Source of the DNA: a virus
Taxonomy: Duplodnaviria; Caudoviricetes
Virus record (IMG/VR): IMGVR_UViG_3300006139_000004
Coordinates: 1 to 64,000 of that record
DNA length: 64,000 nt
Direction: 5' to 3' (one strand)
Shown: positions 3,534 through 55,224 of the stretch, in pieces
Layout of the letters: each line of letters begins with the position of its first letter
How positions within the stretch are numbered: the first letter of the stretch is position 1
The notes under the pieces: model-generated
Seen by the model: the letters and a program-made list of their open reading frames with translations, nothing else
The model's database searches: none
What the model was told of the DNA's origin: nothing
Program-made: the position numbers and the translations under genes

Positions 3534-3564
3534 TCCCTTCTGGATGATTTTTCATCCAAAATAT

Positions 3565-3747: not shown

Positions 3748-3785
3748 ATCAGCATACCTCTTTCATAATTGTATTTATGGTTATA

Positions 3786-4625
3786 TCAATCAAGTAAATC
3801 TGCCATTGCAGCAGTTTCACTTCGCTCTGTCTTAACCAATTTGACAAAGCCGAATTTCGGATGGCCTTTAAGACGGTCAACAGCAATCATAAGCCCATTA
3901 TTTTCTGTAAATACCTTATGATCTGTCTGTTTATAATCACCATTAAGCCATAGTGCAGAACCTTCGCCCACACGACCAAGAAGCAGTTGAACGTGTTCCT
4001 TAGTCATATTTTCTGCCTCGCTGCACATAATAATGGTATTCTTTATGTCACGGCCTCGAATGAATCCCAAATGCTCTACCTCAATCTGCTGGTTGCTAAT
4101 CAATCTCTCTAATCCATCTCTACCACCAACATGATCTGCAAGAGGCATAGCAAAAGGAAGTAACTTATCAAAAGCATCTCCGGGTAAAAATCCAAGAGGC
4201 TTAGAGTTCTTAACCTCTACATTATTCCGAACCCACATAATCTTATCAAACTTACCTTGCATTACCAAATCCAATGCAACAGATGACATAAGATAATCTT
4301 TGCCAGTTCCAAACTTGCCAACAAGAATTTTCACTGTAATATCTTGATTGTATAGCATATCAATAGCCAACCGCTGTTGCGGATTTCTTGGCCTAACATT
4401 GCCAGTATAATCATTCTTGATCACCTTATATCCAACCAGAGCATACTTTGTTCCATCCCAGCGGTAGAAATCTTTCGCAACTCCATCTGTGTCATAAACA
4501 ATAATATGTTCATTTTGGCGGCAACCAAAAATATTATTGGTTAAATCACTATAAAAAGTAGGCAACCGTTCATCATCAGAAGTTATCTCCTGAAATCCAC
4601 GGTATTCATCCATATAATCAACCAC
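3786..4625 (-). CDS. phoH: PhoH-like ATPase
   Basis: PRNPQQ, GKFGTGK Walker A, GFLPG, IRGR, GDYKQTD. Confidence 0.88.
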   Translation of the reverse strand: MVDYMDEYRGFQEITSDDERLPTFYSDLTNNIFGCRQNEHIIVYDTDGVAKDFYRWDGTKYALVGYKVIKNDYTGNVRPRNPQQRLAIDMLYNQDITVKILVGKFGTGKDYLMSSVALDLVMQGKFDKIMWVRNNVEVKNSKPLGFLPGDAFDKLLPFAMPLADHVGGRDGLERLISNQQIEVEHLGFIRGRDIKNTIIMCSEAENMTKEHVQLLLGRVGEGSALWLNGDYKQTDHKVFTENNGLMIAVDRLKGHPKFGFVKLVKTERSETAAMADLLD

Positions 4626-4627
4626 CC

Positions 4628-5263
4628 TTACACAATATCGTCAAGCGAACAATCCTCTCCGATGATATAATCACAAAAGCCCTTCTCTTTAGCTTCATCA
4701 GCAAAAAGATACCACTCAACACGCAACTTGCTATCATATTCATCAGAAGTAATTTTACTGCGAGAAAGCACATACTCTTTAATTCGTTGCTCAATTCGCT
4801 TATTAAACTCCATCTGATCCTGTGCCTTTGCACCAGAATTGACAACAAAATTTGTACCATCGTGCATAAGGAACTTAGCTGTCTTAGAAGCATAACGCTT
4901 GTGTCCAGCGAGGCCAATCAAGAATCCCATAGAATACTGATAGCCAAGATTGATTGTATAAACAGGTGTCTTACTCTCAAGAATCACATCCACCAGTTCA
5001 AATCCCGGATCAATCGAACCTCCATTAGACGATACATACAGTAAAATTGGTTTGCGTTCTTCCACAGGAATATCCTTATCATCCGCATTATATTGTAAAA
5101 TATGGCGAACAATCGAATCAATAATGCACTCGTCAATGTCATCAGATAAGTACAATTTCCTACTACGTAAATTACGCAGATAGAAAACTTCATCGACCCC
5201 CCAATTTTTGGCGATTACACCATCATCCACATCAAAGTCAAAGTCGTAAAATCCCTTAGTCAT
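4628..5263 (-). CDS. clpP: ClpP-like protease subunit
   Basis: SNGGS, YSMG catalytic Ser, LMH, EAKEKGFCD; RBS GGAGG before ATG at 5263. Confidence 0.85.
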   Translation of the reverse strand: MTKGFYDFDFDVDDGVIAKNWGVDEVFYLRNLRSRKLYLSDDIDECIIDSIVRHILQYNADDKDIPVEERKPILLYVSSNGGSIDPGFELVDVILESKTPVYTINLGYQYSMGFLIGLAGHKRYASKTAKFLMHDGTNFVVNSGAKAQDQMEFNKRIEQRIKEYVLSRSKITSDEYDSKLRVEWYLFADEAKEKGFCDYIIGEDCSLDDIV

Positions 5264-5276
5264 ATTGTCCCTCCAA

Positions 5277-5495
5277 TCAATGACGATATTTGCGCTTGCG
5301 TTCACGCTCTTTATCAATCTGCTCACAAATAGAAGCAGCACGTGCATTAGAATCCATGATCAGACGCAGATATTTTTCTGCTTCTGGCAGATAATAATGA
5401 TGACGCTTACTTTTCTGAACACAAGTACGGACAATCTCTGCCCTTGGGTACACTTCACGCACCCGCTGCGACTCAGGTTTTGTAATAGGAATCAA
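5277..5495 (-). CDS. Hypothetical protein
   Basis: 72-aa ORF with RBS, co-oriented. Confidence 0.6.
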   Translation of the reverse strand: MIPITKPESQRVREVYPRAEIVRTCVQKSKRHHYYLPEAEKYLRLIMDSNARAASICEQIDKERERKRKYRH

Positions 5496-5661
5496 TTTTC
5501 TCAGTCCTTTTCATATAAATTTGAGGATTTAAGAAAGTGCTGTAATACAGTCATTTTCGTTCTTATCCCTTCTGCACACTTAGTAGAAATCAAAAACCTC
5601 TATAATACAGCACTTTCTAAGGGTTTGCAAAAGTATTTTATGGACTTCAAACTCCACAAAA

Positions 5662-8600
5662 TCAAAATCCGCTAATTCTATCCTTGTATTCAATTATCTT
5701 ACGATATATCTCAATCCTTTTTGACTTTGAAATATTCAAGTTTCCATTTATAAATGAACTAAAATGTCTCGGAACATAATTTACATGATTTGCAAACCAA
5801 GCAACTTGCAATCCATATTCATCAAGAAAGTCTTTAACGTACTTTCTGAAATTATCTTGATCATCATAAGGCATGGACGCTAACTCCTTTCTGAATGTAT
5901 AGTCATAAATCTGAATTTCCCCATTCTTACACTCACTCAAAAGAGGAATTGGTGTACTACTATCCTGAAGAACATTATATACGCTACGCTTCATTCGATA
6001 GTTTTCTCCATCCATCATGAGCAAAAACAAATGTCGTTCTATATCGCTATAGTCCTCTTCAAGATGAAAGAGAATATGATGAATAGTCTTATCTGAAATT
6101 GCAATCTGCTGAACATCTGCAATCCACTTATTTCTTAAATCAATAGTACGTTCTCTTTTTTCCTTACTTGAATAATTTTCATCACCCCAAACGCCTTTCG
6201 TATCTTCACGAAGTTGTCTTGCGCTATCTACGATCCTTGTTTCTTGCAACTTGCTATACTTTCCATCCACTTCACTTTCATCTACCAGAATATAAGACAT
6301 TAATTTCTTGCGCTTTCTTGGCATCTTAAACTTGTTAATACAAGATTCTAAATAATCCATGCTTGTTGCGTACTTTACATATGACATTCTTCCACGTTCA
6401 ACACAAATACTCTCATCATTCTCTTTAATTGCTCTAACTTCTTTATAACTTCCAACTACACACTTTTTGACAAATTCATCATCTTCTTCACGATATATGT
6501 AATAATCATCCCGATACCCTTTGTATCCATCAATATATTTAAAGAACATTGGTCTGACGTGTCTATTCTTATTATCTCTTACATCGTACTTTTTCTTTAA
6601 ACACTGTAACTCGAACGTATTGTCTGCCGGATTTTCTCTTTTTGCTGAATCAATTTCCAGATTGCTCATAACATCTAACTGAGCAATATCACAATACAAA
6701 CTCATTACGGACTCAATACTTGCTCCATTATGCAATCTATCCCACAAAATAGAATTCAACTCTTGTGAAAGATTAATAATCTCACCAATTTTATTTACAC
6801 TTGTTTTAATATCCAAATCAGCTTTTTCCGCATCTGTATACTTTCGCTTATGGGCTTCTCCCTCTACCAATTTAGTAGGAACGGGGAAGTTATCGTAATT
6901 TCGCTTCGCTGCCTTAATTAAAATTTGATTATCTGATAGCAACATAGTATCGCTGTCAAAATCTGCACCTGACAATCGTTCCAGTATATTTTCTTCAATA
7001 CTGTTCAAATATACAATCTCATTTGTGGGATTCATGTAACGTATGATCTCATCACGTAATACATTTTTGGTTAAAAGAACATTACCCATTGTTACGTGTG
7101 GGCTTCTACACCCAAGCAGTTCTACCCCATCATTAAAACGAACTGAATGAACTGTTTTCTTTTCAATAACAGAAGTTCCATCAAACGTACCAATCGCTTG
7201 TTTTAACATCTCAATAGGATTACCACATAATGTACTATAGTTTCCTTGAATGAGAATATGTCCACATCTTAAATTCTTAATAAAGGCTTTGATTAAATCA
7301 TTACAAAACTCGACATACATTTTAGTTTTTGTAAATTTATCAGTAATACCAAGCATTGTATAGATTACATCATTCTTTGAAGCCATGCTTTCAGTATAAT
7401 GAATCTGATCAGGAGAACGATACGCATAGCTAATTTGAAATCTAAGAGCAGCAGGATCAGTTTTAATTAATCTTGCAAAATCCAGAGATGGTTTAACCAG
7501 TGCTTCAACTTCCTCATATGTCATCTGGAGCGTATTCAACAACTGATAATGTGTCTGTACCATCCTACCATTAAAAAAGTGTGTCGGCTTTTCATATTTT
7601 ACAACACCAAACGTAGGCTCCAAAATATCTAACCACTCATCTAATGTTCCAAATTTGACATACTTTATAGAACTTGGGGTAGTGATCAGTTTAATATCCT
7701 CAATTTGTGTTGCCCTTGTCTTTCCATTTAGCTGACTTACATTAGTAATCCCGTTATCAGCAAACCATTTTTGAATGTTAGAGTTAAAACAGCACGACTT
7801 AAAAAATCTACTACGCAACAAGAGCATACCATGTTCTCTGGCCTCTGGCATATTCTGCCGCTGGCGTTCTTGAAACTTCAAGAACACACTCCGATCCATC
7901 AACGATTGTCCATCCCAAATGCTGTTTGAAATCTCAACATCTTCAATGTTGGTTACAAGCCTTCCATCAACAAAACGAGTAGCAGCAGCTTTATCATGGA
8001 ATACACTCTTGTAATCATCGACCACCAAAATGTTTTCTGGACGAAGTTGAATTGTATCTACAATACTACTCAGCGTGAGTGCAATATAAGGCTCCAGCGC
8101 AGCCAGATCAATGTCTTGTCCCTCTTTCACCTTAATTCCACACATTTCCCACTTGTGCATTTTAGGATACAACCGCTCATCTATAAACAGACATTTACCA
8201 ACACGACTCGATCCGGCGCTGCGCTTAAATCTCACATACTTAATACCGTCACAGTAAAATCCGTTTTTGTACAATTCTTCTCGAATATTCGCAACACTGT
8301 TAATTGTCTGAATATTGCTGTTGGCCTTATATGTTTTACCATCAAATTGAAACGCTGTACCATACACACTTTCTGGAATAGCATTTTCTACAGGGGAACC
8401 AACCTCAACTCCTGCCAACTCTCCATCTGCAAAAGCCACACAATCATGGAATACTAAATCATCATAAGTATACTTATGTAAAATGTAAAATGTCTTATCG
8501 CCTTTTTGAACCTTGTTATATTGTTTATTGCTATACTTAAATGTCACATTAATGACCCTGTAAGTATAATCTTTTTTGTTTTGGTAGAACGAAAATTGTT

Positions 8601-8820
8601 CACTCGGACATATCTGAGCAAACACTTCTTGCATCTTAATAAGATCAAGGCTGTAATCTAATGTGTTGATAAACCGTCCAAGATTCAAAACTCCTGCTTG
8701 GCTTCTGAGCCTATATCCGATTGGCTTTCCATTTTCGTTGATCTTTTGATTAACACAATTATTCGATACAAAAATGTCCTTTCCATCAAGGGACGGTATT
8801 CTCACCCCATTCTCAAGCAT
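5662..8820 (-). CDS. YonO-like single-subunit DNA-dependent RNA polymerase (double-psi barrel)
   Basis: RSAGSSRVGKC, DGQSL, RSPH, catalytic GADFDSD, IDSAK motifs; 1052 aa. Confidence 0.85.
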   Translation of the reverse strand: MLENGVRIPSLDGKDIFVSNNCVNQKINENGKPIGYRLRSQAGVLNLGRFINTLDYSLDLIKMQEVFAQICPSEQFSFYQNKKDYTYRVINVTFKYSNKQYNKVQKGDKTFYILHKYTYDDLVFHDCVAFADGELAGVEVGSPVENAIPESVYGTAFQFDGKTYKANSNIQTINSVANIREELYKNGFYCDGIKYVRFKRSAGSSRVGKCLFIDERLYPKMHKWEMCGIKVKEGQDIDLAALEPYIALTLSSIVDTIQLRPENILVVDDYKSVFHDKAAATRFVDGRLVTNIEDVEISNSIWDGQSLMDRSVFLKFQERQRQNMPEAREHGMLLLRSRFFKSCCFNSNIQKWFADNGITNVSQLNGKTRATQIEDIKLITTPSSIKYVKFGTLDEWLDILEPTFGVVKYEKPTHFFNGRMVQTHYQLLNTLQMTYEEVEALVKPSLDFARLIKTDPAALRFQISYAYRSPDQIHYTESMASKNDVIYTMLGITDKFTKTKMYVEFCNDLIKAFIKNLRCGHILIQGNYSTLCGNPIEMLKQAIGTFDGTSVIEKKTVHSVRFNDGVELLGCRSPHVTMGNVLLTKNVLRDEIIRYMNPTNEIVYLNSIEENILERLSGADFDSDTMLLSDNQILIKAAKRNYDNFPVPTKLVEGEAHKRKYTDAEKADLDIKTSVNKIGEIINLSQELNSILWDRLHNGASIESVMSLYCDIAQLDVMSNLEIDSAKRENPADNTFELQCLKKKYDVRDNKNRHVRPMFFKYIDGYKGYRDDYYIYREEDDEFVKKCVVGSYKEVRAIKENDESICVERGRMSYVKYATSMDYLESCINKFKMPRKRKKLMSYILVDESEVDGKYSKLQETRIVDSARQLREDTKGVWGDENYSSKEKRERTIDLRNKWIADVQQIAISDKTIHHILFHLEEDYSDIERHLFLLMMDGENYRMKRSVYNVLQDSSTPIPLLSECKNGEIQIYDYTFRKELASMPYDDQDNFRKYVKDFLDEYGLQVAWFANHVNYVPRHFSSFINGNLNISKSKRIEIYRKIIEYKDRISGF

Positions 8821-8833
8821 TTAATCACTCCAT

Positions 8834-9193
8834 TCAAAACAATAACTTCTCGCCTTTTGGCTGTTCAGGATAAAAGAACTCAGCAGTATTAGGTAACTGG
8901 CTCAAAAACTCATCTGGTATTTTACCCTGATACCAAAGATTGTTAGTAGTTATCTCTCTCCCATCAAAGAACCTAATCCAAAATCGTCTGCCAGAATGTC
9001 CAAGAAAATCATAATAGTTTGGATTATCTACATTTCCACCATCACGATAACATTCACCATTAATTATAATGTGTTGTTCTTTCTCGGCAACAATTTCATT
9101 CCAAAAATTCTTATAAAAACACGTTCCACTACATAACACAGCATTTGAATATTGACTCTTTTCTATTTCCTTACCGCATATCACACATTTCAC
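8834..9193 (-). CDS. Hypothetical protein with N-terminal Zn finger
   Basis: CxxC...CSGTC. Confidence 0.65.
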   Translation of the reverse strand: MKCVICGKEIEKSQYSNAVLCSGTCFYKNFWNEIVAEKEQHIIINGECYRDGGNVDNPNYYDFLGHSGRRFWIRFFDGREITTNNLWYQGKIPDEFLSQLPNTAEFFYPEQPKGEKLLF

Positions 9194-11387: not shown

Positions 11388-12548
11388 TCATAACATTGCA
11401 TGAAGTTGCTTAACAGACTCAGCAATGGCCTGTGCTGCTTTTAACATATCCTCGCTGCTATTATCTCGTCCCATTGAAATACGAATTGTGCAACTCGCAT
11501 CATGGTCATCAAGATACAATGCCTTCAGAACATGAGAAGGATCAAGTGAACCAGCAGTACACGCAGAACCAGCGGACACACACACATCTCTTTCATTCAG
11601 CAATAACAACATAGCTTCACTCTCACAATGAGGCAGCGTAAGACTGATAATTCCCGGAACGCCGCCGTCTGTATTAACATGGTACACCACACCAAGTCTA
11701 TCAAGTTCATCCAAGAATACCTTACGCAAACTCTTATAAATGCCCTCTCGATAATCCATAGTGCTTTGTTTATGCAAAAGTTCTACAGCAGCACCCATAG
11801 ATGCAATACCGGGAACATTCTCTGTTCCAGCACGAAGATGATGCTCTTGACCGCCCCCTGTGATAATTGGATCAATTTTCAGCCCACGGCGTACATAAAG
11901 AACTCCAACACCCTTCATAGCATTAATTTTATGTCCAGACATTGCCATCAAATCAATATGGCTCTTGTTCACATCCAAAGGAATATGCCCCAACGCCTGA
12001 ACTGCATCAGTCATAAAAATAACCCCAAATTCCTGACACAAATCGCCAATATCATCAATAAGCTGAATAGACCCGATTTCGTTGTTCACAGCCATAATCG
12101 ACACCATACCCAACGAATCCTTGAACTGTTGCATCACACAATCCAGTTCCTCAATATCGACACGACCATCCTGATCTACTGGCATATAAATTACCTTGAA
12201 TCCATCTGTCTCTAAGGATTGACAAGTATGAAGCACCGCATGATGCTCAATCATACTGGTAATAATTGTAGTCTTTCCAATCTTCTTCAGGTATGGAGCC
12301 ATGCCACGCAACGCAAGATTGTCAGCCTCGCTTCCTCCAGCCGTAAATACAATTTCATCAGGACTTGCACCAATGTAGTTTGCAATCTGGCTACGGGCTT
12401 TTCCCACTACTTTTGCTGCACTAACTCCGGCTTGATGTAAACTACTCGGATTACCATAATCATCATGCAAAGCCCATAGTGCAGCTTCAAATGCTTCATG
12501 TGAGATTCTTGTTGTAGCTGCATTATCTAAGTAAATCAATTTCAACAC
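11388..12548 (-). CDS. iscS: Cysteine desulfurase (IscS/NifS)
   Basis: YLDNAATT, GNPSS, SGHK PLP lysine, SAGSAC catalytic Cys. Confidence 0.92.
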   Translation of the reverse strand: MLKLIYLDNAATTRISHEAFEAALWALHDDYGNPSSLHQAGVSAAKVVGKARSQIANYIGASPDEIVFTAGGSEADNLALRGMAPYLKKIGKTTIITSMIEHHAVLHTCQSLETDGFKVIYMPVDQDGRVDIEELDCVMQQFKDSLGMVSIMAVNNEIGSIQLIDDIGDLCQEFGVIFMTDAVQALGHIPLDVNKSHIDLMAMSGHKINAMKGVGVLYVRRGLKIDPIITGGGQEHHLRAGTENVPGIASMGAAVELLHKQSTMDYREGIYKSLRKVFLDELDRLGVVYHVNTDGGVPGIISLTLPHCESEAMLLLLNERDVCVSAGSACTAGSLDPSHVLKALYLDDHDASCTIRISMGRDNSSEDMLKAAQAIAESVKQLHAML

Positions 12549-29003: not shown

Positions 29004-29771
29004 TTACAAAGGAATGATTAAACGCCGTGGATAATATCAAAGAGGTCAGATATTTTGAATGTACGTGTAGTAAGTGTGGAAAGGTTGTTAAAAACAAACG
29101 TGGTTGGGCTGATTTACATATAAATGGCTGGAAACAGATTGGAGAAATGTTGCTGTGCCAAAACTGCTATGCTCCCTATGCCAATCTTAATCCGCAGATA
29201 GGAGATAAGGTCAAGTGTCTGCTTACAACAGATACATGGCATAGAACAGAATTTGGAAAAACATATACAGTATGTGCGTTGGTAAAAAACGATCCCGGAA
29301 CAATTTATATTGATGTTGGGGACGGATGGCAGCGGAAGTTACTTCGTGGTGAATATCTAATGGCCTAAAAGGAGCAAACAGATATGAACGATTTAACACT
29401 TGGTCTTATCTATGCTGTAAAGCATAGTGAAAAGTCTGCAAAAGAATCTATCATTGGTTTTCTTTCTGAATATACTGGAACACCAAAGCAGTATTATTCT
29501 GATAACGAACTGGTACGGATAATTCGAGATTCTTTTGTGGACTATTTGAAAACGGCAGATAATCCAGCGTTTGAGGTATGGCAATACTTCGATGCGAAGC
29601 GACAAAAGGAAAACTTCAAAGATGTATTTCCAGAACAGCATAAGAAATATGCAGAACGTGATAATTGTATGGACATTGATACAGAAGCAATTCTTTCTGC
29701 GTTTCGTTTGGCTGGTGTTCAAAAAGATGGTAAATACATAAATGGATTTAAAGAAAATTGGAGGAATTAGA

Positions 29772-30791
29772 GTGGACATTAGAGAAGTCTTGAGCCGCCC
29801 GGAATATCAATTCATTCAGACGAACCCTCATCTTGGGGGGTCGATGCTGTTTGCAACATTTGGTGGTAGTCATGCGTATGGTACAAACAAACCTACGTCT
29901 GATATTGATATACGTGGATGTGCGCTAAATTCTAAGCGTGATTTGCTTGGAAGAACAAACTTTGAGCAAATGATTGATAACGAAACTGATACCACGATTT
30001 ATGCGTTTAATAAGCTGATTGGCTTATTGGAAAATTGTAATCCTAACACAATCGAAATGCTATTTTGCAGACCTGACAGTTATGTGTTCTTTCATCCTAT
30101 TGGAAAAATGCTGATTGAGAAGCGAGATATGTTTCTTTCGCAGAAGGCAGTTCAGTCTTTTGGCGGCTATGCTAATCAGCAGCTTCGGCGGCTTGAATGT
30201 GCAGTTGCCCGTGATCGTCTGTCGCAGACAAAGAAAGAGGAACACACATTAAACTCTATGAAAAGTTCCATGAAGCATTTTGAGGAAAAGTATACAGAGT
30301 TTGATAAGGGCAGCATTGTTCTTTATACAGCAGAAAGCGCACGTGAGGATTGTGATACGGAAATTTTTGCAGATATTAACCTAACGCATTATCCAGCCCG
30401 TGAGTTTAACTGCATTATGAATGAGTTGAGCAATGTACTTGGTACATACGAAAAGTTAAATCATCGAAACCATAAGAAAGATGAAGAACATTTAAACAAA
30501 CACGCTATGCACTTGATCCGTTTGTACTTGACCTGTATTGACTTGTTGGAAAATGGTGAGTTTTCTACGTATCGTGAGAAGGACATTCCGCTGCTTATGT
30601 CGATCCGTAATGGTGCGTACCAGAATGAGGACGGAACATATAAACAGGAGTTTTTTGATATGGTAAGCGACTATGAACGGCGAATGAATTATGCCAAGGA
30701 GCATACAGTTCTTCCACCGAAGCCTAATTACAAGCAGATTGAGGAATTTGTAGTGTATGTGAACGAGGAAGCTATTAAAATCGGAGGGTAA
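29772..30791 (+). CDS. Pol-beta-like nucleotidyltransferase (YcgL/RlaP-like)
   Basis: GGSHAYGT...SDIDIRG, NPNTIEML, KHAMHLIRL. Confidence 0.85.
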   Translation: MDIREVLSRPEYQFIQTNPHLGGSMLFATFGGSHAYGTNKPTSDIDIRGCALNSKRDLLGRTNFEQMIDNETDTTIYAFNKLIGLLENCNPNTIEMLFCRPDSYVFFHPIGKMLIEKRDMFLSQKAVQSFGGYANQQLRRLECAVARDRLSQTKKEEHTLNSMKSSMKHFEEKYTEFDKGSIVLYTAESAREDCDTEIFADINLTHYPAREFNCIMNELSNVLGTYEKLNHRNHKKDEEHLNKHAMHLIRLYLTCIDLLENGEFSTYREKDIPLLMSIRNGAYQNEDGTYKQEFFDMVSDYERRMNYAKEHTVLPPKPNYKQIEEFVVYVNEEAIKIGG

Positions 30792-31246: not shown

Positions 31247-32653
31247 ATGGGATGGCAAGATTCTTCATCAAGAAAAATGGTTTGGAAATCTATCAATGAG
31301 GAAAATTTGAATAAGCGAAAAGTATTTATTCCTGATGCTCCAAAGCAGCTTATGCAAGTTCTGCTGGATGCAGGATATGAAGCCTATGTGGTGGGCGGCT
31401 GTGTTCGTGATTTTCTGTTGGGACAGGAACCGCATGATTGGGATATTTGTACGAACGCACTTCCAGATCAGATGAAGGAGTGTTTTGCCAACTATCGTGT
31501 TATTGAAACTGGCCTTCAGCATGGAACGCTTACAGTCATGGTTGATCATGTTGGTTATGAAATCACTACATATCGTATTGATGGAGAATATACGGATCAT
31601 CGTCATCCTGATTCGGTTCAGTTTGTCGGTAGACTTCAAGAAGATTTGATGCGCCGTGATTTCACAGTCAATGCAATGGCTGCTGATATTAGTGGAAAAA
31701 TCCGGGATTTTTATGATGGACAGTTTGATTTGGAGCATAAATGGATTCGCTGCGTTGGCGATCCTGATAAACGCTTTACAGAAGATCCCCTACGTATTTT
31801 TAGGGCTATGCGGTTTGAATCCAAGTTGGGTTTTGCAATCGAGGAAAAGACAGAGGATTCTATGCGTAGGCATCGGTATTTGCTCCAACATATTTCAGCA
31901 GAGCGGATTAACACTGAACTGACTGGAATTTTGATGGGAGATTGTTATTCCACATTGGCCTGTTTTCCTGATATTTTATCTGTTTGTATTCCAGAGATTA
32001 AACAGTGCATTGGGTTTCAACAGAATAATCCTCACCATAACAGAAATGTGTGGGATCATACCCTATTTGCTGTTTCTGTGGCTCCTAAAGACATTTATAC
32101 TCGGCTGGCATTGTTGTATCATGACATTGGAAAACCCCTGTGTTATTCGGAAGATAGCGGCGTAGGACATTTTTATGGACACGCTGCCGTTAGTAGGGAT
32201 ATAGCGGAAAAATCCTTACGCAATCTGCGGTTTGATAACCAAACTATCAAGTTGGTTACTCAGCTTGTCGAAGCCCACGATAGAACGATTGAACCACGAA
32301 AGCCAGTAATTCGCCGTTGTCTGAATAAGATGGGGATGGATCAGTTTCTTCGGTTACTGGACGTTAAAGAAGCTGATTATGCGGCACAAGCGCAGATTTA
32401 TGGAGATAGGTTGCACAAGGCAGAAATTCTTCAGATGACAGATGAGATTATTGCGGCGCAAATACAACAAAAGGATTGTTTTACTCTCAAAGATTTAGCT
32501 GTTAATGGAAACGATCTGATTCAGCTTGGATATAAGCCCGGGAAAAAGATAGGAATGATACTTAACCAGTTGCTTGAAATGGTGATTGATGGCATAATGG
32601 AAAATGATAAAGCAAAATTAATTGATTGGGTAAAGAATCAGAAAGGTGTATAA
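31247..32653 (+). CDS. cca: CCA-adding tRNA nucleotidyltransferase with HD domain
   Basis: VGGCVRD, DWDI, EITTYR, RRDFTVNA, EDPLR, HDIGK. Confidence 0.92.
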   Translation: MGWQDSSSRKMVWKSINEENLNKRKVFIPDAPKQLMQVLLDAGYEAYVVGGCVRDFLLGQEPHDWDICTNALPDQMKECFANYRVIETGLQHGTLTVMVDHVGYEITTYRIDGEYTDHRHPDSVQFVGRLQEDLMRRDFTVNAMAADISGKIRDFYDGQFDLEHKWIRCVGDPDKRFTEDPLRIFRAMRFESKLGFAIEEKTEDSMRRHRYLLQHISAERINTELTGILMGDCYSTLACFPDILSVCIPEIKQCIGFQQNNPHHNRNVWDHTLFAVSVAPKDIYTRLALLYHDIGKPLCYSEDSGVGHFYGHAAVSRDIAEKSLRNLRFDNQTIKLVTQLVEAHDRTIEPRKPVIRRCLNKMGMDQFLRLLDVKEADYAAQAQIYGDRLHKAEILQMTDEIIAAQIQQKDCFTLKDLAVNGNDLIQLGYKPGKKIGMILNQLLEMVIDGIMENDKAKLIDWVKNQKGV

Positions 32654-36074: not shown

Positions 36075-36497
36075 ATGAGAAAGCCACAGGTCGATAATAA
36101 ATATAATCTTACAATGGCAAAAATTCGCCGTTTGAAGATTGCAGATAGGAGTAAGGTATGTGAACCTTTATTCTGGAGAAATGATGTGATTGAAGCATGG
36201 TGTATCTGTGGAAGCAGCGGGAATGATATGGACAGAAGGTTTGCCACTAACAATGAATTTTGGATTGGCATTTATGATCTGAACGCAAAAGCGTATGCTG
36301 GTAAATTTCGTGTTAGTCTAAGTTCATATGGTGGTATGTGTGGATATGAGTTTAATAAATTTTTTGATGTAAAGGATATTGATAACGAGCAAGATTTAGA
36401 GATACAAGAAAAGTTTTTGGCGAAGATAAATGAACTGATTGACTGTGGAGTTTTAGTGTTTAATACTGAGGCCGCAGAAATTGGGGGGGCAAATTAA
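36075..36497 (+). CDS. Hypothetical protein with G7 tract at its 3' end
   Basis: RBS GGAGG; ends IGGAN* across G7 at 36483-36489. Confidence 0.65.
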   Translation: MRKPQVDNKYNLTMAKIRRLKIADRSKVCEPLFWRNDVIEAWCICGSSGNDMDRRFATNNEFWIGIYDLNAKAYAGKFRVSLSSYGGMCGYEFNKFFDVKDIDNEQDLEIQEKFLAKINELIDCGVLVFNTEAAEIGGAN

Positions 36498-36813: not shown

Positions 36814-36985
36814 TTTATGTATTGTAGTGGTGATTGTAAACATTTAAACAGTAAGAATCATATTTGCAAACTTACTGGAGAAAGGCTCTCTCATATGAGG
36901 TATGGTAGTAGAGGGTTTAGATACCATGTACATGAGCATGATGGAATTTGTCAACATGATAAAGAAGAAATGGAGGAAATTAAAA

Positions 36986-37852
36986 ATGGGAAGCAAGCGT
37001 GATAGTCTTGGGGATCGGATGAAAGGCTATGAGAATGTGACACGAACGAAGTTGGTGCGCCGTATGCCTGTCATTATTCGTATTGATGGAAAAGCGTTCC
37101 ACACATTTACAAAGGGGTTTGATAAGCCTTTTGATAGCCTTCTGATGGACGCAATGAATAGGACAATGAAATATCTTTGTGAAAACATTCAAGGCTGTGT
37201 ACTTGGTTACACACAGTCTGATGAGATTTCGTTGCTACTGGTAGACTATCAGACTCTCACTACAGATTCTTGGTTCGATGATACTGTGCAGAAGATGTGT
37301 AGCATTTCTGCAAGTATGGCTACATTGGCTTTTAACAAGGCATGGAAAGAGGTCGTGGATGAGTGGGGCGAAAAGACTTTTGGTAGTTCATGGTTTGAGG
37401 GCGGTACAAATGAGCCTATTGATGAATTGCTGAAGAAAAAGGCAGATACATATTGTTCTAAATATGATCGTGCGTTGTTTGATAGTCGTGTGTTTAATGT
37501 TCCTAAAGAGGATGTTACCAATTATTTTGTCTGGCGGCAGCAGGACGCTACACGCAACAGTATCCAGTCGGCAGGACAGGCGTGTTTTTCACACAGAGAA
37601 CTTATGAATAAGACGTGCAATATGATTCAGGATATGCTTTTCACCGAGAAAGGCATTAATTGGAATGACTATTCTACGTCCTGTAAGCGTGGTACGTGCT
37701 GTGTTAAGCGAATGGTTGACGTTCCTACAGGTAATGTATGCGGTGCTATCCAAGAGGTTGTACGCCGCCAGAAATGGCAACTTGACACAGGTATTCCTAT
37801 TTTTACTCAAGAGCCTAATTACGTTAATAGTCTGGCATTTGTTGGTGACTGA
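36986..37852 (+). CDS. thg1: tRNA(His) guanylyltransferase Thg1-like protein
   Basis: RIDGKAFHTF, YTQSDEIS, FDSR, YFVWRQQD. Confidence 0.9.
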   Translation: MGSKRDSLGDRMKGYENVTRTKLVRRMPVIIRIDGKAFHTFTKGFDKPFDSLLMDAMNRTMKYLCENIQGCVLGYTQSDEISLLLVDYQTLTTDSWFDDTVQKMCSISASMATLAFNKAWKEVVDEWGEKTFGSSWFEGGTNEPIDELLKKKADTYCSKYDRALFDSRVFNVPKEDVTNYFVWRQQDATRNSIQSAGQACFSHRELMNKTCNMIQDMLFTEKGINWNDYSTSCKRGTCCVKRMVDVPTGNVCGAIQEVVRRQKWQLDTGIPIFTQEPNYVNSLAFVGD

Positions 37853-48223: not shown

Positions 48224-50416
48224 ATGAGAGTTTTACTCTTGTTGCGTGGATCGGCTGGTGTTGGTAAGTCCACATATATCAAAGAGCATGGGCTTGAGCC
48301 GTATGCACTGTCAGCAGATAATATTCGTATGATGTGTCAGTCCCCGGTAATGCAAACAAACGGAACTCTTGCAATTAGCCAATCGAATGAAAGGTTAGTA
48401 TGGTCGTTGTTATTCCAGATGCTTGAGGCAAGGATGCAGCGTGGAGAATTTGTAGTGATTGATGCAACAAATTCCAAGACACAAGAAATCAACCGCTATA
48501 AAGATATGGCTAAAACTTATCGGTATCGGATGTATTGTGTTGATATGACTGGTGTTCCTATGGAAGAATGTAAACGGCGTAATAAACTGAGGCCGATTTA
48601 CAAGCAAGTCCCGGATGAAGTCATCGAAAAGATGTATGCTCGTTTTGAGACACAATCTATTCCGGCTGGTGTGACCGTAATTCAGCCTGACGAACTGGAT
48701 AAAATTTGGTATAAGCCAAGCGATTTCTCTCATTATAAGAGGATTCATCATATTGGAGATATTCACGGATGCTATACCGTCTTGAAAGAGTATTTGAATG
48801 ATGGATTCAAAGATGATGAATTATATATTTTCTGCGGTGATTATATTGATCGTGGTATTGAAAATGTAGAAGTAATCAACTTCCTGTATGAAAACATGAA
48901 TCGTCCCAATGTAATATTGCTGGAAGGAAATCATGAACGCTGGCTTTGGTATTGGGCGCATGGTGGTACATCTAAATCAGCAGAGTTTGAGAAAGTTACC
49001 CGCAAGCAGCTTGAGGCTGGGGGGTTGGATTCTAAAATTGCTCGAATGTTGTATCGTAAATTTAATCAGTGTGTGTATTATACATACAATGAAAAAACTG
49101 TTTTGGTTACTCATGCTGGTTTAAGTGTAATTCCTGATAATCTGACAGAGATTGCATCTGAACAGATGATTCGTGGAGTTGGACGGTATAGTGAATACTT
49201 AGATGTTGCAAAGACATTTGATGAAATTATGCCTGAGAATACATATCAGGTGTTTGGTCATCGTAACACTGAGGATTCTCCGATTACGGTGTCAAAACGG
49301 TGTTTTGATCTGGAAGGTAACGTTGAGTTCGGCGGTAATCTTCGGGCTGTAGTTTTGGATGCAGACGGTTTTCATCCTGTAATGATCAGAAACACAGTGT
49401 TTAAAGAGCAGACTAACGAGGAAGCAGTTGTACCAACTGAATATACTGAAACAGAGCAAAACGTTATGGAAGTTGTGGATAAAATGCGTCAGAACAAATA
49501 CATTTACGAAAAGAAGTATGGCGACATTTCCTCTTTCAACTTTACCCGTGAGGCTTTCTATGATAAGAAGTGGAATGAGCAGACTACTAAGGCCAGAGGT
49601 TTGTTTATTAATACAGCAAATGGAACTGTAGTTGCCCGTTCTTACCCAAAATTCTTTAATGTTAATGAGAGAGCAGAAACAAAGTTTAGTATGCTCCAGC
49701 ATAAGTTGAAGTTCCCCGTTACTGCATATGTAAAAGAGAATGGATTCCTTGGCATGGTGTCATATAATCCTGATACAGATGATTTCTTTATTACCAGCAA
49801 GTCCAGTCCTGATAGCGAGTTTTCAGCATGGTTGAAGGCAATGTTCTATGAGAATGTAAATGACGTTGCTGGCCTGAAGGAATATCTGAAACGGAAGAAT
49901 GTCACAATGGTATTTGAGTGTGTAGACATGGAAAATGATCCTCACATTATCAAATACGACAAATCACATTTGTTCTTGTTGGATATTGTAAAAAATCAAC
50001 TTGAATATGAGAAATTGCCTTATCAGCAGCTTGTTCAGATCGGTAAAGAGTTCGGATTTGAAGTTAAGACACGTGCATATCAGTTTATGGATTGGCAGAG
50101 TTTCCGTAACTGGTATACTGAAATCATGGATGAGGAATATCTTTATGATGGCAATGTAGTTGAAGGTTTTGTTGTTGAGGACAATGCTGGGTACATGGTA
50201 AAATTCAAGTGCTATTACTATCATTTGTGGAAACATATGCGGTCTGTTGCACAGGAAGTATTCAGAAGCGGACAGTATCGCCGTATGGGATCGCTGCTTA
50301 CTCCGCTTGAAAATAAGTTCTATGGCTTCTGTAAGGAAATTAGAGATCGGGAACATCCCAATCATATCATTCCGTTGCGTGATATGTTCATGCAACAGTT
50401 GATTGAAAGCAAATAA
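48224..50416 (+). CDS. Polynucleotide kinase-phosphatase-RNA ligase (Pnkp-like)
   Basis: GSAGVGKST P-loop, IDATN; GDIHG/GDYIDRG/GNHE phosphoesterase; ARGL, KFFN, KENG, EGFV ligase motifs. Confidence 0.9.
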   Translation: MRVLLLLRGSAGVGKSTYIKEHGLEPYALSADNIRMMCQSPVMQTNGTLAISQSNERLVWSLLFQMLEARMQRGEFVVIDATNSKTQEINRYKDMAKTYRYRMYCVDMTGVPMEECKRRNKLRPIYKQVPDEVIEKMYARFETQSIPAGVTVIQPDELDKIWYKPSDFSHYKRIHHIGDIHGCYTVLKEYLNDGFKDDELYIFCGDYIDRGIENVEVINFLYENMNRPNVILLEGNHERWLWYWAHGGTSKSAEFEKVTRKQLEAGGLDSKIARMLYRKFNQCVYYTYNEKTVLVTHAGLSVIPDNLTEIASEQMIRGVGRYSEYLDVAKTFDEIMPENTYQVFGHRNTEDSPITVSKRCFDLEGNVEFGGNLRAVVLDADGFHPVMIRNTVFKEQTNEEAVVPTEYTETEQNVMEVVDKMRQNKYIYEKKYGDISSFNFTREAFYDKKWNEQTTKARGLFINTANGTVVARSYPKFFNVNERAETKFSMLQHKLKFPVTAYVKENGFLGMVSYNPDTDDFFITSKSSPDSEFSAWLKAMFYENVNDVAGLKEYLKRKNVTMVFECVDMENDPHIIKYDKSHLFLLDIVKNQLEYEKLPYQQLVQIGKEFGFEVKTRAYQFMDWQSFRNWYTEIMDEEYLYDGNVVEGFVVEDNAGYMVKFKCYYYHLWKHMRSVAQEVFRSGQYRRMGSLLTPLENKFYGFCKEIRDREHPNHIIPLRDMFMQQLIESK

Positions 50417-50443
50417 CAAGAAATACAACAACGAGGTTAAAGA

Positions 50444-50950
50444 ATGGACAGAGTTTTATTAAGCACTGGTAATAATAGCTGGGGAACTCCGCAGAAGTTC
50501 TTTGACCGCTTGAATCAAGTATTCCGTTTCACTCTTGATCCGTGTGCAGACGAAAACAATCATAAGTGCGATAAATTCTACACTGTGCAGGATGATGGCC
50601 TCTCGCAAAATTGGGGGGGGCAAGTAGTTTTCTGTAATCCACCGTACAGTCGTAGGACGAAGGATAATCCCGGACAAGAGGATTGGATTGAGAAATGTTG
50701 TTCAGAGAGTGAAAACAACAAGATCACAGCGGTCATGCTTATACCAGCAAGAACAGATACAAGGCCACAACACGAATATGTGTTTGCTCATGCAAAGTAT
50801 ATCTGCTTTGTTAGAGGGCGGTTAAAGTTCAACGATGGTGCTGATCCAGCACCGTTCCCAAGTGAAGTTGTTGTTTTCACTCAAGACAACTTTGACAAAG
50901 AAATCAAAGGTCTTTCAGACCTTGGGTTTTGGATTAAATTAAGGGAGTGA
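50444..50950 (+). CDS. Phage N6-adenine DNA methyltransferase (in-frame G8 tract)
   Basis: WGTP, FTLDPCA, DGL, CNPPYS, PARTDT. Confidence 0.9.
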   Translation: MDRVLLSTGNNSWGTPQKFFDRLNQVFRFTLDPCADENNHKCDKFYTVQDDGLSQNWGGQVVFCNPPYSRRTKDNPGQEDWIEKCCSESENNKITAVMLIPARTDTRPQHEYVFAHAKYICFVRGRLKFNDGADPAPFPSEVVVFTQDNFDKEIKGLSDLGFWIKLRE

Positions 50951-50956
50951 TGTGAA

Positions 50957-51686
50957 ATTAAATATGTTGGCAGCAAGTCTCGGATCGCCAAGCATATTGT
51001 TCCTATTATTCAGTCATACATCGACAAAACGGACGCAAACTTTTACTTAGAGCCTTTCATCGGGGGGGGCAAATGTAATTGATAAAATTTCTTGCAAGAG
51101 AAAGATTGGTTACGACATTAATCATTACTTGATTGAGTTATTCAAACATTTGGATATGATAGATGGATTGCCAGATGACATTTCAAAGCAAGAGTATAGT
51201 GATGTAAGGAAGTCGTGGCAAAATCAAGACGGTAAATATCCAGATTGGTATATCGGTGTAGTTGGCTTTCTTGCATCATATAACGGAAAGTTTTTCGGTG
51301 GTCGGGCTGGTACAGTAAGAACAAAGATTGGTACAATCAGAAACTACTATGACGAAGCAAAGCGAAACCTGATGACACAAATCCCAAATTTGTCAGGGAT
51401 TGAATTTGGAGAGTTTGATTACCAGCAACTTGATATGTCTAAGTTCAAAGGCGGCGTAATCTACTGCGATATTCCATATAAGAACACAACAGGCTATCAG
51501 CAGACATTTAATCATGATGAGTTTTGGGCGTGGGCTGAACGATGTTCAAGAGACAATATCGTTTTGGTGTCAGAACAGGTATCCCCGGATGGATGGAAGT
51601 CAATCTGGTCGAAGCCAGTTAAACGAACACTGGATAATGCGTCACGGATTGACATTACGGAACAACTATATATTTTTGACAAATAA
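50957..51686 (+). pseudogene. Dam/D12-class adenine methyltransferase, frameshifted at G8 (51062-51069)
   Basis: KYVGSKSR...EPFIGG in frame 1; ANVIDK...YCDIPY...VSE continues in the shifted frame; probable ATT start. Confidence 0.82.
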
Positions 51687-51858
51687 CAAGAAATACAAAT
51701 ATTGGAGATGATAATAGCATGACACGTATGGAACGAAAAAGAGTACATAAAATTCGACTTTTAAGCATTGCTGTGATGGTTGTTGCTTTGGCCTGTATCC
51801 TTGCTTGTTGTACTGCTCCCATGCACCCTGTTCCCGCATTTGGTTGAGGGGGTACAGA

Positions 51859-52610
51859 ATGGTAACAGTAGCTAAAACTTGGGGGGGGGGCAAGCACTAC
51901 CACTTGATAAAGGTTCTTTACGAACAAACGTAATATTCAATGATGATTGTATCAAAGGAATGTCATTGATGCCTGATGAATCGGTTGACTTGATTCTGAC
52001 TGATCCTCCATACAATATAAGCGTTAAAAATAATTTCCATACTTTAAAAGGTAGACATGGGATTGATTTTGGAGAATGGGATAAAGGATTTGATTTAACT
52101 GGTTGGATACCTAATGCGATTCGTATTTTAAAAAGTGGTGGAAACATTATTATTTTTAATGCTTGGAGAAATATGGGACAAATTGCAGATATGCTCGAAC
52201 AAAATGGGTGTTTAATAAAAGAAATGATTCAATGGCAAAAGACAAATCCAATGCCACGGAATAGAGATAGACTTTATGTAACTACTTGTGAATTTGCAAT
52301 TTGGGCTACAAAAGGAAAGGGTTGGACTTTTAATAGGCAAAGAGAAACATATGAAAATACAATTTTTGTTTATCCAATCGTTTCTGCAAAGCAAAGATTT
52401 CATCCTACGCAAAAACCGACAGCCCTAATTGAAGATTTGATAAAAATACATAGCAATGAAAAAGACATAATTTGTGATCCTTTTATGGGAAGTGGTTCAA
52501 CAGCATTGGCAGCATTACATACAGGACGCAAGTTTATTGGATATGAACTTGATGAAAAGTATTATGAAGTTGCTTGTCAACGAGTAGATCAAGAAATGAA
52601 AGGGTGTTGA
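51859..52610 (+). pseudogene. N4C/N6A beta-class DNA methyltransferase, ATG out of frame at G10 (51881-51890)
   Basis: TDPPY, HPTQKP, DPFMGSGST; RBS+ATG at 51859 runs into TAA unless the tract is G8 or G11. Confidence 0.75.
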
Positions 52611-52611
52611 A

Positions 52612-53900
52612 ATGCAGCCTATTTTCCCGGAATATATACAATTTTTGAAAAGCCATAATTGTGATGTAGATTGGTTCCATGAAAACACTTTTTGGCTTGA
52701 TAACAACATTGTAAAAGCCTTCAGACGGGGGGGCAAGTAGTTTTATTATACCGTGTATCGGTTGATGATAATTTACATCTGACTTTAACTAAGCATAAGC
52801 AGAATAAAAACTTTGATGACTTTGAAACGTGGCAAGAAGCAATTCAGAGAAATCGAAATAGGCTTTACCAGATAGAACAAGAAAGTATAAATTTGTTGCA
52901 ACAATATGGTTTACATACAGATCGAAGAATTATCAATACAAATTCTACTGGTAAAGATAGTATGGTGGTAACTCATCTTGCTAAAAAAGCTGAATTGAAT
53001 TTTGAAACATTCTTTAATGTCACAACACTTGATGTAGCAGAAAGTAATCAAATGGCAAAGCGCAATGGGTATCAGCACATCTTTCCTGATCCTCAATACG
53101 GTGGATTTTATCAATATGTTCATAATAGCAGAATGATACCAAATAGATTTACAAGATTTTGTTGTCAATATTTCAAGGAAAGGCCAACAATAGATTATTT
53201 CAACGCAGATGACAAACTTTTGTTTATGTTTGGTATTCGTAACGGAGAAAGTAATCAGCGATCAAACTATGAGGATATTATAAAGAATCCATTATGGGGT
53301 AATCGTGATTGGATAGGGGTTTTACCTATTCGCAAGTGGTCAGAATTAGATATTTGGCTTTATATTCTTGCAGAAGATATTGAAGTAAATCCTAAATACA
53401 AATATGGATATACAAGAGTTGGATGTGGAATTGCTTGTCCGTATTATACAAAATACACATGGGTTCTTGATAAGTTCTGGTATCCATATCTTTATAATCG
53501 TTGGAGAGATATTCTTCGTAATGATTTTGTCAGTAACAATAAATGGCTGATTATGAATTGCACAATTAAAGAATATGTTACAAAAGCATGGACAGGTGGT
53601 GTCTTTCGTACAGAGCCAACAGATGAGGTCATTCAGGAATATGCAGAACATTCCGGGTTAGATATAGAAGTTGCGAAAAAGTATTTCAACCGATATTGTT
53701 CAAATGGCTGTATTAGCAAGCGAAGTCAGCCATTAAAAATAAAAGATAAAAACACTTTAGCAATGAACATGAAGATGTTTGGTCGTGATATTGAGAAATT
53801 CAAATGCAAGAAGTGTTTAATGAAAGAGTTTGGATGGACTCAAGAACAATGGAATAAACAAGTTAATGAATTCAAAAATCAAGGATGCAGACTATTTTGA
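52612..53900 (+). pseudogene. PAPS-reductase-family (DndC-like) protein, frameshifted at G7 (52727-52733)
   Basis: STGKDS, RFCC, GIRNGESNQR, RVGCGIACP; N-terminal ORF from 52612 stops right after the tract and the shifted frame is open into 52893. Confidence 0.8.
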
Positions 53901-53912
53901 TTATAAGGAGAG

Positions 53913-54317
53913 ATGCTAATGAAAATTTACTATGCTCATCATGTTTGGAAGTACGATACGCCTATAGAAAATTTTGAAATCAAGTGTATTGAACGGCAAT
54001 TTAAAGATGCAGTTATTGTAAATCCTCGCACAACCATCCCGCAAGATCAACCAGAAAGCGTCATTCTTGATTACGCATATAAAGCACTCGATGACTGTGA
54101 GGCTATTGTGTTCTCTACATTTTCAGGAATGATCGGACATGGAGTATTTAATGAAATCATCTATGCTTTTAATGCTGGAAAGAAAGTATATCAGCTTGAC
54201 GGAACTGAATGTATTGAAATTAGAAGTTACACAGATTTTATTGAGCATGGAATTCGTGATTTTATTTTCCGTGGTGATAACAGAATGTACGCCGTTGTAA
54301 ATTCTCCATGTTGGTGA
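53913..54317 (+). CDS. Nucleoside 2-deoxyribosyltransferase-like protein
   Basis: KIYYA, VNP, CEAIVF, GVFNEIIYAFNAGKKV. Confidence 0.6.
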   Translation: MLMKIYYAHHVWKYDTPIENFEIKCIERQFKDAVIVNPRTTIPQDQPESVILDYAYKALDDCEAIVFSTFSGMIGHGVFNEIIYAFNAGKKVYQLDGTECIEIRSYTDFIEHGIRDFIFRGDNRMYAVVNSPCW

Positions 54318-54318
54318 T

Positions 54319-55194
54319 GTGATGGGATTAAGAGTTTTATCAATTTGTGGTGGTCTTGAAACTGGATTGCTGGCTTTAAAAGAATTAGGAATACCAGTTG
54401 ATGAATACCATACTTATGAAATTTTTGAACCAGCTATCGAACTTAGTAAAAGGCATTTTCCTGAAATTATTCATCATGGAGATGTTATTGGAGCAGATTT
54501 TTCACAGTTTAAAGGTTTTGATCTGGTGATGGCTGGTACGTGCTGCCAGAGTTTATCGGTAGTCCGGCAAGAAAACAATCAAGTATGTTCAGGACTGAAG
54601 GGCAAATCTGGCATTTTCTTTGAGTATGCAAGAGCCGTCAAAGAAATTCAGCCAAAATGGTTCCTGTTGGAGAATGTAGTTCCAAAAAGCAAGACTGATC
54701 AGAATATTATTACCGATAACTTGGGGGGGCAAATTCCTCAGTTGATAAATTCAAATCTCTTTTCTGCACAAGACAGGGAGAGATTGTATTGGACGAATAT
54801 TCATATTGGTTCGCTGCCTAAATTAAACACAACCGTCCTGAAAGATATAATGGTATCAGATGCGCCAGAGAAAGATTATTATGATAAACCATATATCTTT
54901 CATGGTGAAGATAAAAAAGTAATCGCTACATTACAAGTTAATACACATGATATGTTGAAACGAGTTTACAATCCTCAATTTAAATGTGCAACTTTGACTT
55001 GTGTGAATGGTGGTTATCAAGAAAAGAAAGTTTGGGATAATGGACGTATTCGCAAACTGACACCTGTTGAGTATGAGAGGTTACAAACATTGCCAGATAA
55101 TTTTACAGAAGGATATAGTGACAATGTTCGGCGTTCACTCTGCGGCAATGGGTGGACAAAAGAGGTTATAAAGCATATTTTCAAGGGCTTATAA
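54319..55194 (+). CDS. dcm: DNA cytosine-5 methyltransferase (in-frame G7 tract)
   Basis: VLSICGG, GTCCQ, LENV, QDRERLYW, ERLQT, GNGW. Confidence 0.85.
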   Translation: MMGLRVLSICGGLETGLLALKELGIPVDEYHTYEIFEPAIELSKRHFPEIIHHGDVIGADFSQFKGFDLVMAGTCCQSLSVVRQENNQVCSGLKGKSGIFFEYARAVKEIQPKWFLLENVVPKSKTDQNIITDNLGGQIPQLINSNLFSAQDRERLYWTNIHIGSLPKLNTTVLKDIMVSDAPEKDYYDKPYIFHGEDKKVIATLQVNTHDMLKRVYNPQFKCATLTCVNGGYQEKKVWDNGRIRKLTPVEYERLQTLPDNFTEGYSDNVRRSLCGNGWTKEVIKHIFKGL

Positions 55195-55224
55195 CAATAA
55201 ATACAACAAGAAAGAAGGTATAAG

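Follow-up and report, generated by a model that had tools for sequence, protein, structure and literature searches.

Introduction

Simple-sequence repeats, often poly-G, toggle DNA methyltransferases (MTases) in bacteria, and several such switches together give combinatorial methylomes. As far as the cited accounts extend, these phase-variable MTases and phasevarions comprise Type III mod, Type I hsd and Type IIG genes of Haemophilus, Neisseria, Helicobacter and Campylobacter, and they are chromosomal gene regulators, usually part of restriction-modification (R-M) systems (PMC4889913, PMC4209511). Among phages, the A-run contingency loci of T2 agt, which encodes a DNA alpha-glucosyltransferase, revert ~1000-fold faster than a point mutant, and their switching is proposed to reflect a trade-off, alternating escape from modification-dependent (TgvAB) and modification-sensitive (McrA/BC) restriction (Gomez, Barrick and Waters, 10.1101/2025.10.21.683753). 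Hypermutable poly-G tracts of 7-11 nt are described for Campylobacter Fletchervirus (Sorensen et al. 2021, Cell Rep 35:109214), and Bordetella phage BPP-1 is reported to have a poly-G tract in a methylase gene (Liu et al. 2004, via 10.1101/2025.10.21.683753). Here we describe a gene cluster at positions 50444-55194 of IMG/VR virus record IMGVR_UViG_3300006139_000004 (Caudoviricetes), a complete phage genome of 133,491 bp with direct terminal repeats and 38% GC, of which the first 64 kb (64,000 nt) form the window. Five DNA-modification genes of this cluster each carry a run of seven to ten G, and an original prediction, made from the letters of the window, held that these slippery tracts switch each gene independently.

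The locus shares with T2/T4 agt a mononucleotide repeat inside a phage DNA-modification gene, subject to +/-1 frameshifts. The T2/T4 repeats, however, consist of A (~9 nt) and occur in a virulent phage of Gram-negative hosts; one gene has been studied, and the repeats are not concentrated in modification genes. Here each of six modification genes has a G run, and the runs are conserved across a family of temperate Clostridia phages. Fletchervirus likewise has poly-G runs in phage coding genes, with subpopulations arising by frameshift, but its tracts lie in receptor-binding protein genes and alter host range via adsorption, not in DNA-modification genes. BPP-1 is alike in having a G run in a phage-encoded DNA methylase; in that account it is a single tract, noted and not studied further. 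Unlike the bacterial phasevarions, the enzymes here are orphan phage proteins of Type II architecture together with presumed non-methyl modification enzymes, with no partner nuclease detected. Full-text literature searches returned no described phage with a whole modification cluster switchable, nor this gut phage family, and by these searches the principle is known but is not documented on this scale in a phage. What is added here is six modification genes, two of them PAPS-reductase/BrxP-like, a weaker tract in an RNA-repair gene, and a relative residing as a prophage in a cultured strain.

Results and discussion

Homopolymer tracts of the modification genes

The cluster comprises six head-to-tail genes, all on the + strand (Table 1), which encode in order a Dam MTase (PF05869), a D12-class adenine MTase (PF02086), a beta-class N6_N4 MTase (PF01555), a PAPS-reductase-like protein (PF01507) presumed from its family to be a DNA-modification enzyme, a 134-residue open reading frame (ORF) and a C5 cytosine MTase (PF00145); its neighbourhood is one of replication and repair genes. 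The identities originally assigned to the five tract-bearing genes hold by Pfam, PHROG, NCBIfam and PADLOC, and the predicted tracts (G8, G8, G10, G7 and G7 at 50613, 51062, 51881, 52727 and 54723) are exact in coordinates and length, as is the CAA that follows each of them. The assignment of two genes as ON (Dam and C5) and three as OFF (D12, N6_N4 and PAPS-like) was also correct. The Pfam match of the uninterrupted Dam gene runs across its G8 tract. The split D12 gene is hit by PF02086 on either side of its tract, with profile positions 1-31 aligned before it and 43-202 after it. The F-I-G-G-A stretch encoded by the D12 tract corresponds, going by what is established for the family and by the Pfam alignment coordinates, to the S-adenosylmethionine-binding motif I, whose conserved Gly-Gly is recoded by the run. 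That G7 would restore this gene is borne out by relative L006 (~94% identical), which has G7 and an open frame, and restoration of the PAPS-like gene by G8 is similarly realised in L028 and L036. The N6_N4 gene had been called out of frame relative to ATG 51859, and we agree: this ATG is preceded by a ribosome-binding site (RBS) and is a conserved start (checked in L035 and L037), from which the homologous gene of L035 is open with G8 and that of L037 closed with G10, and the G10 of the window is in frame solely with a TTG at 51879, which lacks an RBS.

Long G runs are rare in this genome, as had been supposed. There are eight runs of at least seven G and none of at least seven C in the whole genome, where an order-2 Markov model expects 0.24; the order-4 expectation of 2.5 runs was left unused, being inflated by the tracts themselves. 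Modification genes occupy 4% of the genome and hold six of the eight (G7-G10) within their ORFs (binomial P = 1e-7); one stands at the end of an ORF, where a change in length would alter only the C-terminal tail, and one in a 5' untranslated region (UTR). No tract of this length occurs in any recognised tail or receptor gene of the genome, and GGG is its rarest Gly codon (11.5% of Gly codons). The statement that all five modification genes carry tracts is thus right for the cluster and incomplete for the genome, which has a sixth switchable gene at 75277, encoding a second PAPS-reductase-like protein; this tract sits in the PP-loop and supplies the conserved Gly-Gly of the cofactor-binding loop, going by family knowledge and Pfam alignment coordinates. 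A similar concentration is evident in relatives. All six G>=7 runs of the complete 126-kb relative G001 are inside a 5.4-kb cluster of the modification genes plus Pnkp-Rnl, the records of four other relatives show 6-10 runs within the cluster against 1-5 outside it, and in the Flintibacter muris genome six G/C runs of at least 8 nt fall in a 5.7-kb cluster, against ~35 in the remaining ~4.5 Mb.

Conservation of tract position among relatives

A search with the PAPS-like protein gave 30 loci in IMG/VR, 40 in metagenomes of human gut, other gut and fermenter origin, and three informative genome loci, from a mouse-gut metagenome-assembled genome, 'Clostridiaceae bacterium strain 9' and the cultured F. 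muris DSM 110149. Runs of 6-11 nt stand at homologous positions in most relatives of 35-46% GC (~70 loci), and these positions are kept across relatives of 60-90% protein identity; the distant relatives of 25-30% GC have no such runs. A sister clade (L013, L016, L018, L029-L032 and human-gut contigs) carries about ten runs within 8 kb, in genes for an RNA ligase, two PAPS-reductase-like proteins, a putative adenine MTase and two C5 MTases, and in some of its tracts the coding strand has C instead of G. Relatives without a tract use ordinary codons for the loop at the first PAPS site, as K-Q-G-K or P-N-G-K for example, where tract-bearing relatives have R-G-G-Q, and the run is therefore a derived feature built into a tolerant loop.

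Close twins of the present strain, sought by exact flank patterns, were limited to three IMG/VR contigs (~94% identical), with none among the metagenome contigs. The cultured-phage collection holds no close relative: its best DNA matches are 67-70% identical over one MTase, and the helicase is at most 37% identical to that of Bacillus phage G, the best match there.

One relative locus, L083 (positions 3398-9126, contig C368 of 'Clostridiaceae bacterium strain 9'), has eight G/C runs of 8-10 nt within 6 kb, in a second, separate cluster of C5 MTase and PAPS-reductase-like genes. As L036 lies on a separate contig of the same bacterial genome, that genome may hold two such phages.

Tract length and frame in near-identical genomes

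Comparison of tract lengths among the related phages, suggested with the original prediction, showed that they differ (6-11 nt) between genomes that are otherwise almost unchanged. L027 and L028 are 99.83% identical and differ by 20 substitutions and two indels, both at tracts, with G7 in one and G8 in the other at the C5 site. L016 and L029 differ by 17 substitutions, and all five of their indels are at tracts; the pairs L013/L016 and L029/L031 show the same pattern. L033 and L076 have no substitution in 11 kb and two tract differences. In a ten-contig human-gut strain cluster (>=98.3% identical) ten of the 11 indel regions are tracts, each tract has two to four length alleles, and every full-length contig carries a different combination. 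Across five strain clusters, G/C runs of at least 7 nt were variable in 24 of 36 cases, compared with none of 233 A/T runs of 5-7 nt. In the same clusters G/C runs of 5-6 nt are nearly absent (three were found) and those of 7-9 nt common, a bimodal distribution of the kind that selection for mutable lengths would give. At ~0.15% nucleotide divergence 30-50% of tracts already differ, from which we calculate that the rate of change per tract is at least two orders of magnitude above the substitution rate per nucleotide, a lower bound because of back-mutation.

Reading frames in relatives were anchored by tblastn of the peptides before and after each tract, at non-duplicate loci; a simple open-frame heuristic proved unreliable where the upstream piece is short, and was discarded in favour of this procedure. 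At the Dam site the alleles follow a strict period of three, G8 and G11 being ON in 10 loci and G7 and G9 OFF in 14 (24 non-duplicate loci). At the D12 site G7 is ON in 10 loci and most other lengths (G6, G8, G9, G11) are OFF, and the ON length of the first PAPS site is G8 (15 loci), with G7, G9 and G11 OFF. The C5 site is ON in ~15 loci and OFF in nine. The N6_N4 tract has lengths of 7, 8, 9 and 10 among relatives, and the G10 copy of F. muris is broken in the same way as that of the window. Every modification site thus has both ON and OFF alleles among the relatives, and in the OFF alleles of all of them, including those of 60-80% identity, the frame downstream of the tract (~320-1180 nt) is open. 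The tract of the upstream Pnkp-Rnl gene is weaker, only 6-7 nt and in frame in 17 of 19 tract-bearing loci, with G7 out of frame in L006 and L010.

Probable phase variation and the alternatives

Tract length is far more variable than the flanking sequence, in clusters that are 98.3-100% identical, and a change in length toggles an otherwise intact frame of which ON and OFF alleles both occur. These are the properties of a contingency locus, and conserved positions, variable lengths, the period of three and intact downstream frames all accord with the original prediction of independent switches. We consider it very probable that the G runs are simple-sequence contingency loci, giving slipped-strand phase variation of the modification genes. 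In such a mechanism slips of one or two bases would arise at the run as the phage genome is replicated, possibly through the phage's own polymerase (the genome encodes a DnaE-type Pol III alpha), and each slip would shift the downstream part of the gene into or out of frame. Six genes would be switched independently, encoding three adenine/N4 MTases, one C5 MTase and two PAPS-reductase/BrxP-like proteins, and switching within one population would be reversible, so that a phage population or lysogen culture would be a mixture of modification patterns from which selection would keep whichever combination withstands the present host's defences. The benefit may be bet-hedging: modification would protect DNA from classical restriction but expose it to modification-dependent nucleases, the ON state thereby escaping R-M and the OFF state modification-dependent restriction or the cost of modification. 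Both bacterial genomes that hold relatives encode Mrr_cat-domain proteins, which is circumstantial support for this reading.

Several considerations weigh against this explanation. Some 40-60% of alleles are ON, which is modestly above the one third expected without selection, and plain slippage does not account for the strong 3' context, G(n)CA, discussed below. Tract lengths of the present record may themselves contain homopolymer errors, and low-coverage metagenome consensus may miscall some G runs. The comparisons are between consensus sequences, from which reversibility and heterogeneity within a single population are inferred, as are effects on restriction, methylation and fitness. Transcriptional slippage at long G runs is also possible, in which case the OFF state may be leaky.

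The modification of phage DNA is commonly regarded as a constant property of a phage. Were each modification gene to switch fast and independently, one stock or lysogen would represent up to 2^6-2^10 epigenotypes, and models of host range, restriction escape and type IV defence in gut communities would change accordingly. 'Broken' MTase genes in viral metagenomes would then be switched off rather than pseudogenes or errors, and methylation-based host-linking of phages would have to be interpreted differently. With a relative in the cultured, publicly held F. muris DSM 110149, the idea is directly testable. An extended form of it, which we regard as doubtful and put forward tentatively, is a dedicated, cluster-wide 'phase-variable epigenome' of 6-10 independent switches for methyl and for non-methyl, possibly sulfur-dependent, modifications, in which G(n)CA would reflect sequence-directed slippage or tract maintenance and the host methylome would be reprogrammed in lysogens.

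The same switch might serve another purpose, as a prophage-borne phasevarion remodelling the host methylome, or in superinfection exclusion, and not in protection of virion DNA. Bacterial phasevarions are established. The F. muris contig NZ_CALPCP010000004 (L086-L089) holds a collinear relative of 35-44% GC over the sampled stretches up to 110 kb, next to the place where integrase genes map, and beyond 150 kb (the interval of 110-150 kb was not sampled) it consists of host DNA of 53-63% GC, joined to the phage relative; the relative appears to be a large prophage whose GC content is lower than the host's by ~20 points. Two relatives have provirus status in IMG/VR, and the present phage, which has three tyrosine recombinase genes, is temperate. 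The cluster, however, lies among replication and repair genes typical of lytic-cycle expression, and whereas phasevarion enzymes belong to Type I or Type III R-M systems, the cluster MTases match Type II or orphan MTase models. PADLOC finds no nuclease paired with these orphan MTases, and the cluster ORFs include no partner nuclease or specificity subunit by Pfam, NCBIfam or PADLOC. We judge a lysogenic role of this kind unlikely to be the purpose of the switch, although it is compatible with phase variation for DNA protection and does not exclude it.

G runs are a weak spot of several sequencing platforms and some of the related contigs have only 2-4x coverage, so the frame breaks could in principle be homopolymer errors of sequencing or assembly, in genes that are intact and constitutively expressed. 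Four separately assembled contigs from different metagenomes are nevertheless 100% identical including tracts of G7, G7, G11, G8 and G7, which indicates that tract lengths are reproducible and not assembly noise. The high-coverage F. muris isolate (coverage 165) also has an out-of-frame G10 and G9, A/T runs show none of the variability, and error would leave unexplained both the near-restriction of long G runs to modification genes and their conservation. The tract differences among relatives are not sequencing error, and as an account of the frame breaks as a whole we find this explanation very unlikely.

Just as improbable is programmed recoding, raised in the original prediction as an alternative on the strength of the constant G(n)CAA, by which RNA polymerase or the ribosome would slip on the tract and yield full-length enzyme at any DNA length. 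Long homopolymers can give transcript heterogeneity, as is known from A/T runs, and the 3' context is indeed non-random. Six of the genome's eight runs, among them all five of the cluster, are followed by CAA, and among 65 distinct contexts from all loci the next base is C in 46, T in 19 and never A, with CA in 36. (Absorption of an adjacent A into the run by transition was considered as the cause of the missing 3' A and is a weak explanation, A being tolerated 5' of the runs.) The CA nevertheless falls in every codon phase (within a CAA codon, at the end of a GCA codon, or split between GGC and a following A), which makes it a preference at the level of DNA and not of codons. Variability does not depend on this context, sister-clade tracts followed by T, CT or CG being equally variable. 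Alleles that are in frame account for 40-60% of the sample and are frequent at each site, and the correction that would restore an OFF allele differs between genomes, +1 in one and -1 in another. Programmed slippage of the known kinds takes place on A/T runs or heptamers, with the direction of shift fixed and conserved across homologs, and in the dnaX, prfB and IS3 type the in-frame version is rare or absent; the tracts here have neither feature. The G(n)CA context does not rescue programmed slippage.

Least credible of all is the view that the tracts are neutral mutational hotspots in dispensable genes decaying to pseudogenes, for although OFF alleles are in the majority at several sites and the genes are accessory in principle, they have no other disabling mutations, their downstream frames of 320-1180 nt stay open across deep divergence, tblastn matches are full-length (E = 0), and the tracts remain at 7-11 nt without erosion, with the scarcity of 5-6 nt and abundance of 7-9 nt G/C runs pointing to selection for mutable lengths.

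Organisation of the cluster and other features of the phage

Coordinates of the genes and tracts are collected in Table 1.

Table 1. Genes of the modification cluster, its upstream neighbour and the G tracts of the phage genome. Positions are those of the window unless marked as genome positions.
Feature	Position	Strand	Match or context	State
Kinase-phosphatase-RNA ligase fusion (Pnkp-Rnl), immediately upstream of cluster	48224..50416		Pfam	
Dam, phage-type N6-adenine MTase	50444..50950	+	PF05869 / TIGR01712, Pfam 2.1e-26, PHROG 111, PADLOC orphan MTase	ON
D12-class (Dam family) adenine MTase	50957..51686	+	PF02086	split at tract, OFF
Beta-class N6_N4 (CcrM-like) MTase	51859..52610	+	PF01555 1e-43	OFF
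PAPS-reductase-like, BrxP-like protein	52612..53900	+	PF01507 1.9e-22, PHROG 424, PADLOC BrxP 3.3e-27	split at tract, OFF
134-aa ORF, no tract	53913..54317	+	without Pfam, PHROG, NCBIfam or PADLOC match	
C5 cytosine DNA MTase	54319..55194	+	PF00145 2.1e-25, residues 6-289	uninterrupted, ON
G7 in ORF 36075-36497 (no family match)	36483..36489	+	three codons ahead of stop	
G6 in Pnkp-Rnl gene	49019..49024	+		in frame here
G8 in Dam gene	50613..50620	+	codes GG of W-G-G-Q, six residues ahead of NPPY	ON
G8 in D12 gene	51062..51069	+	F-I-G-G-A stretch	OFF; G7 = ON
G10 in N6_N4 gene	51881..51890	+	codons 8-10	OFF; G8 or G11 = ON
G7 in PAPS-like gene	52727..52733	+	N-terminal loop R-G-G-Q	OFF; G8 = ON
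G7 in C5 gene	54723..54729	+	L-G-G-Q, mid-gene	G7 = ON in this allele family
G7 in 5' UTR	72461 (genome)		just past TTGACA/TATACT promoter, ahead of NAD-dependent DNA ligase gene	
G7 in second PAPS-reductase-like gene (genome 75140-76257)	75277 (genome, outside window)		codes SGG	OFF; G8 restores

The frame of the D12 gene has no in-frame ATG, GTG or TTG and opens with ATT at 50957, nine bases past a GGGAG RBS, in an arrangement that overlaps the Dam stop codon (50947-50962) and recurs in L006. A weak ATT start or translational coupling to the Dam gene is likely, on the basis of this layout.

Between the D12 and N6_N4 genes lies a 42-codon ORF (51719-51847), conserved in L006, whose product starts with a basic segment, continues with a hydrophobic one that ends in Cys residues, and resembles a signal or lipoprotein-type peptide. 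Several cluster genes have directly before their RBS a conserved, A/C-rich intergenic motif of ~17 nt, of the form ATAACAAGAAATACAAC, at 50416-50440, 51686-51705 and 55194-55215 in the window and at 8427-8447 and 8497-8517 in L001. The motif also occupies the spacer of the TTGACA/TATACT promoter near genome position ~72430.

Two unrelated genes, Dam and PAPS-like, have ~17 identical nucleotides at their tracts (50613-50637 and 52727-52750), the run and 11 bases 3' of it. They may have converged on a G-G-Q-V-V turn-strand, or short-patch gene conversion may have taken place; gene conversion was not adopted, the flanks failing to co-vary across relatives.

The contig of L005 (positions 1-25, IMGVR_UViG_3300006201_000316) terminates exactly at the N6_N4 G tract, as would be expected if the assembly graph had been broken by tract heterogeneity in the sample.

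Elsewhere in the window a NifS/DndA-like cysteine desulfurase is encoded on the - strand at 11388-12548 (TIGR03402 1.6e-121, DndA model 1.3e-104), which places such an enzyme and two PAPS-reductase-like PP-loop proteins (the cluster gene and that at genome 75140-76257) in one phage genome. Because the phage has these two genes together with its own desulfurase, a sulfur-dependent nucleic-acid modification is a possibility, for example DNA phosphorothioation or tRNA thiolation.

The phage also encodes an unusually full RNA-repair set (29742-30791, 31247-32653, 36902-37852 and 48224-50416), consisting of an RlaP-family nucleotidyltransferase, a CCA-adding enzyme, a Thg1-like tRNA-His guanylyltransferase and the kinase-phosphatase-RNA ligase fusion, and has nine tRNA genes. 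This combination suggests, from gene content, a counter-defence against tRNA-cleaving host nucleases. Right after the tRNA-Ser gene, ARAGORN places a tRNA-like gene at 42389-42481 with an abnormal two-base anticodon loop call ('tRNA-???').

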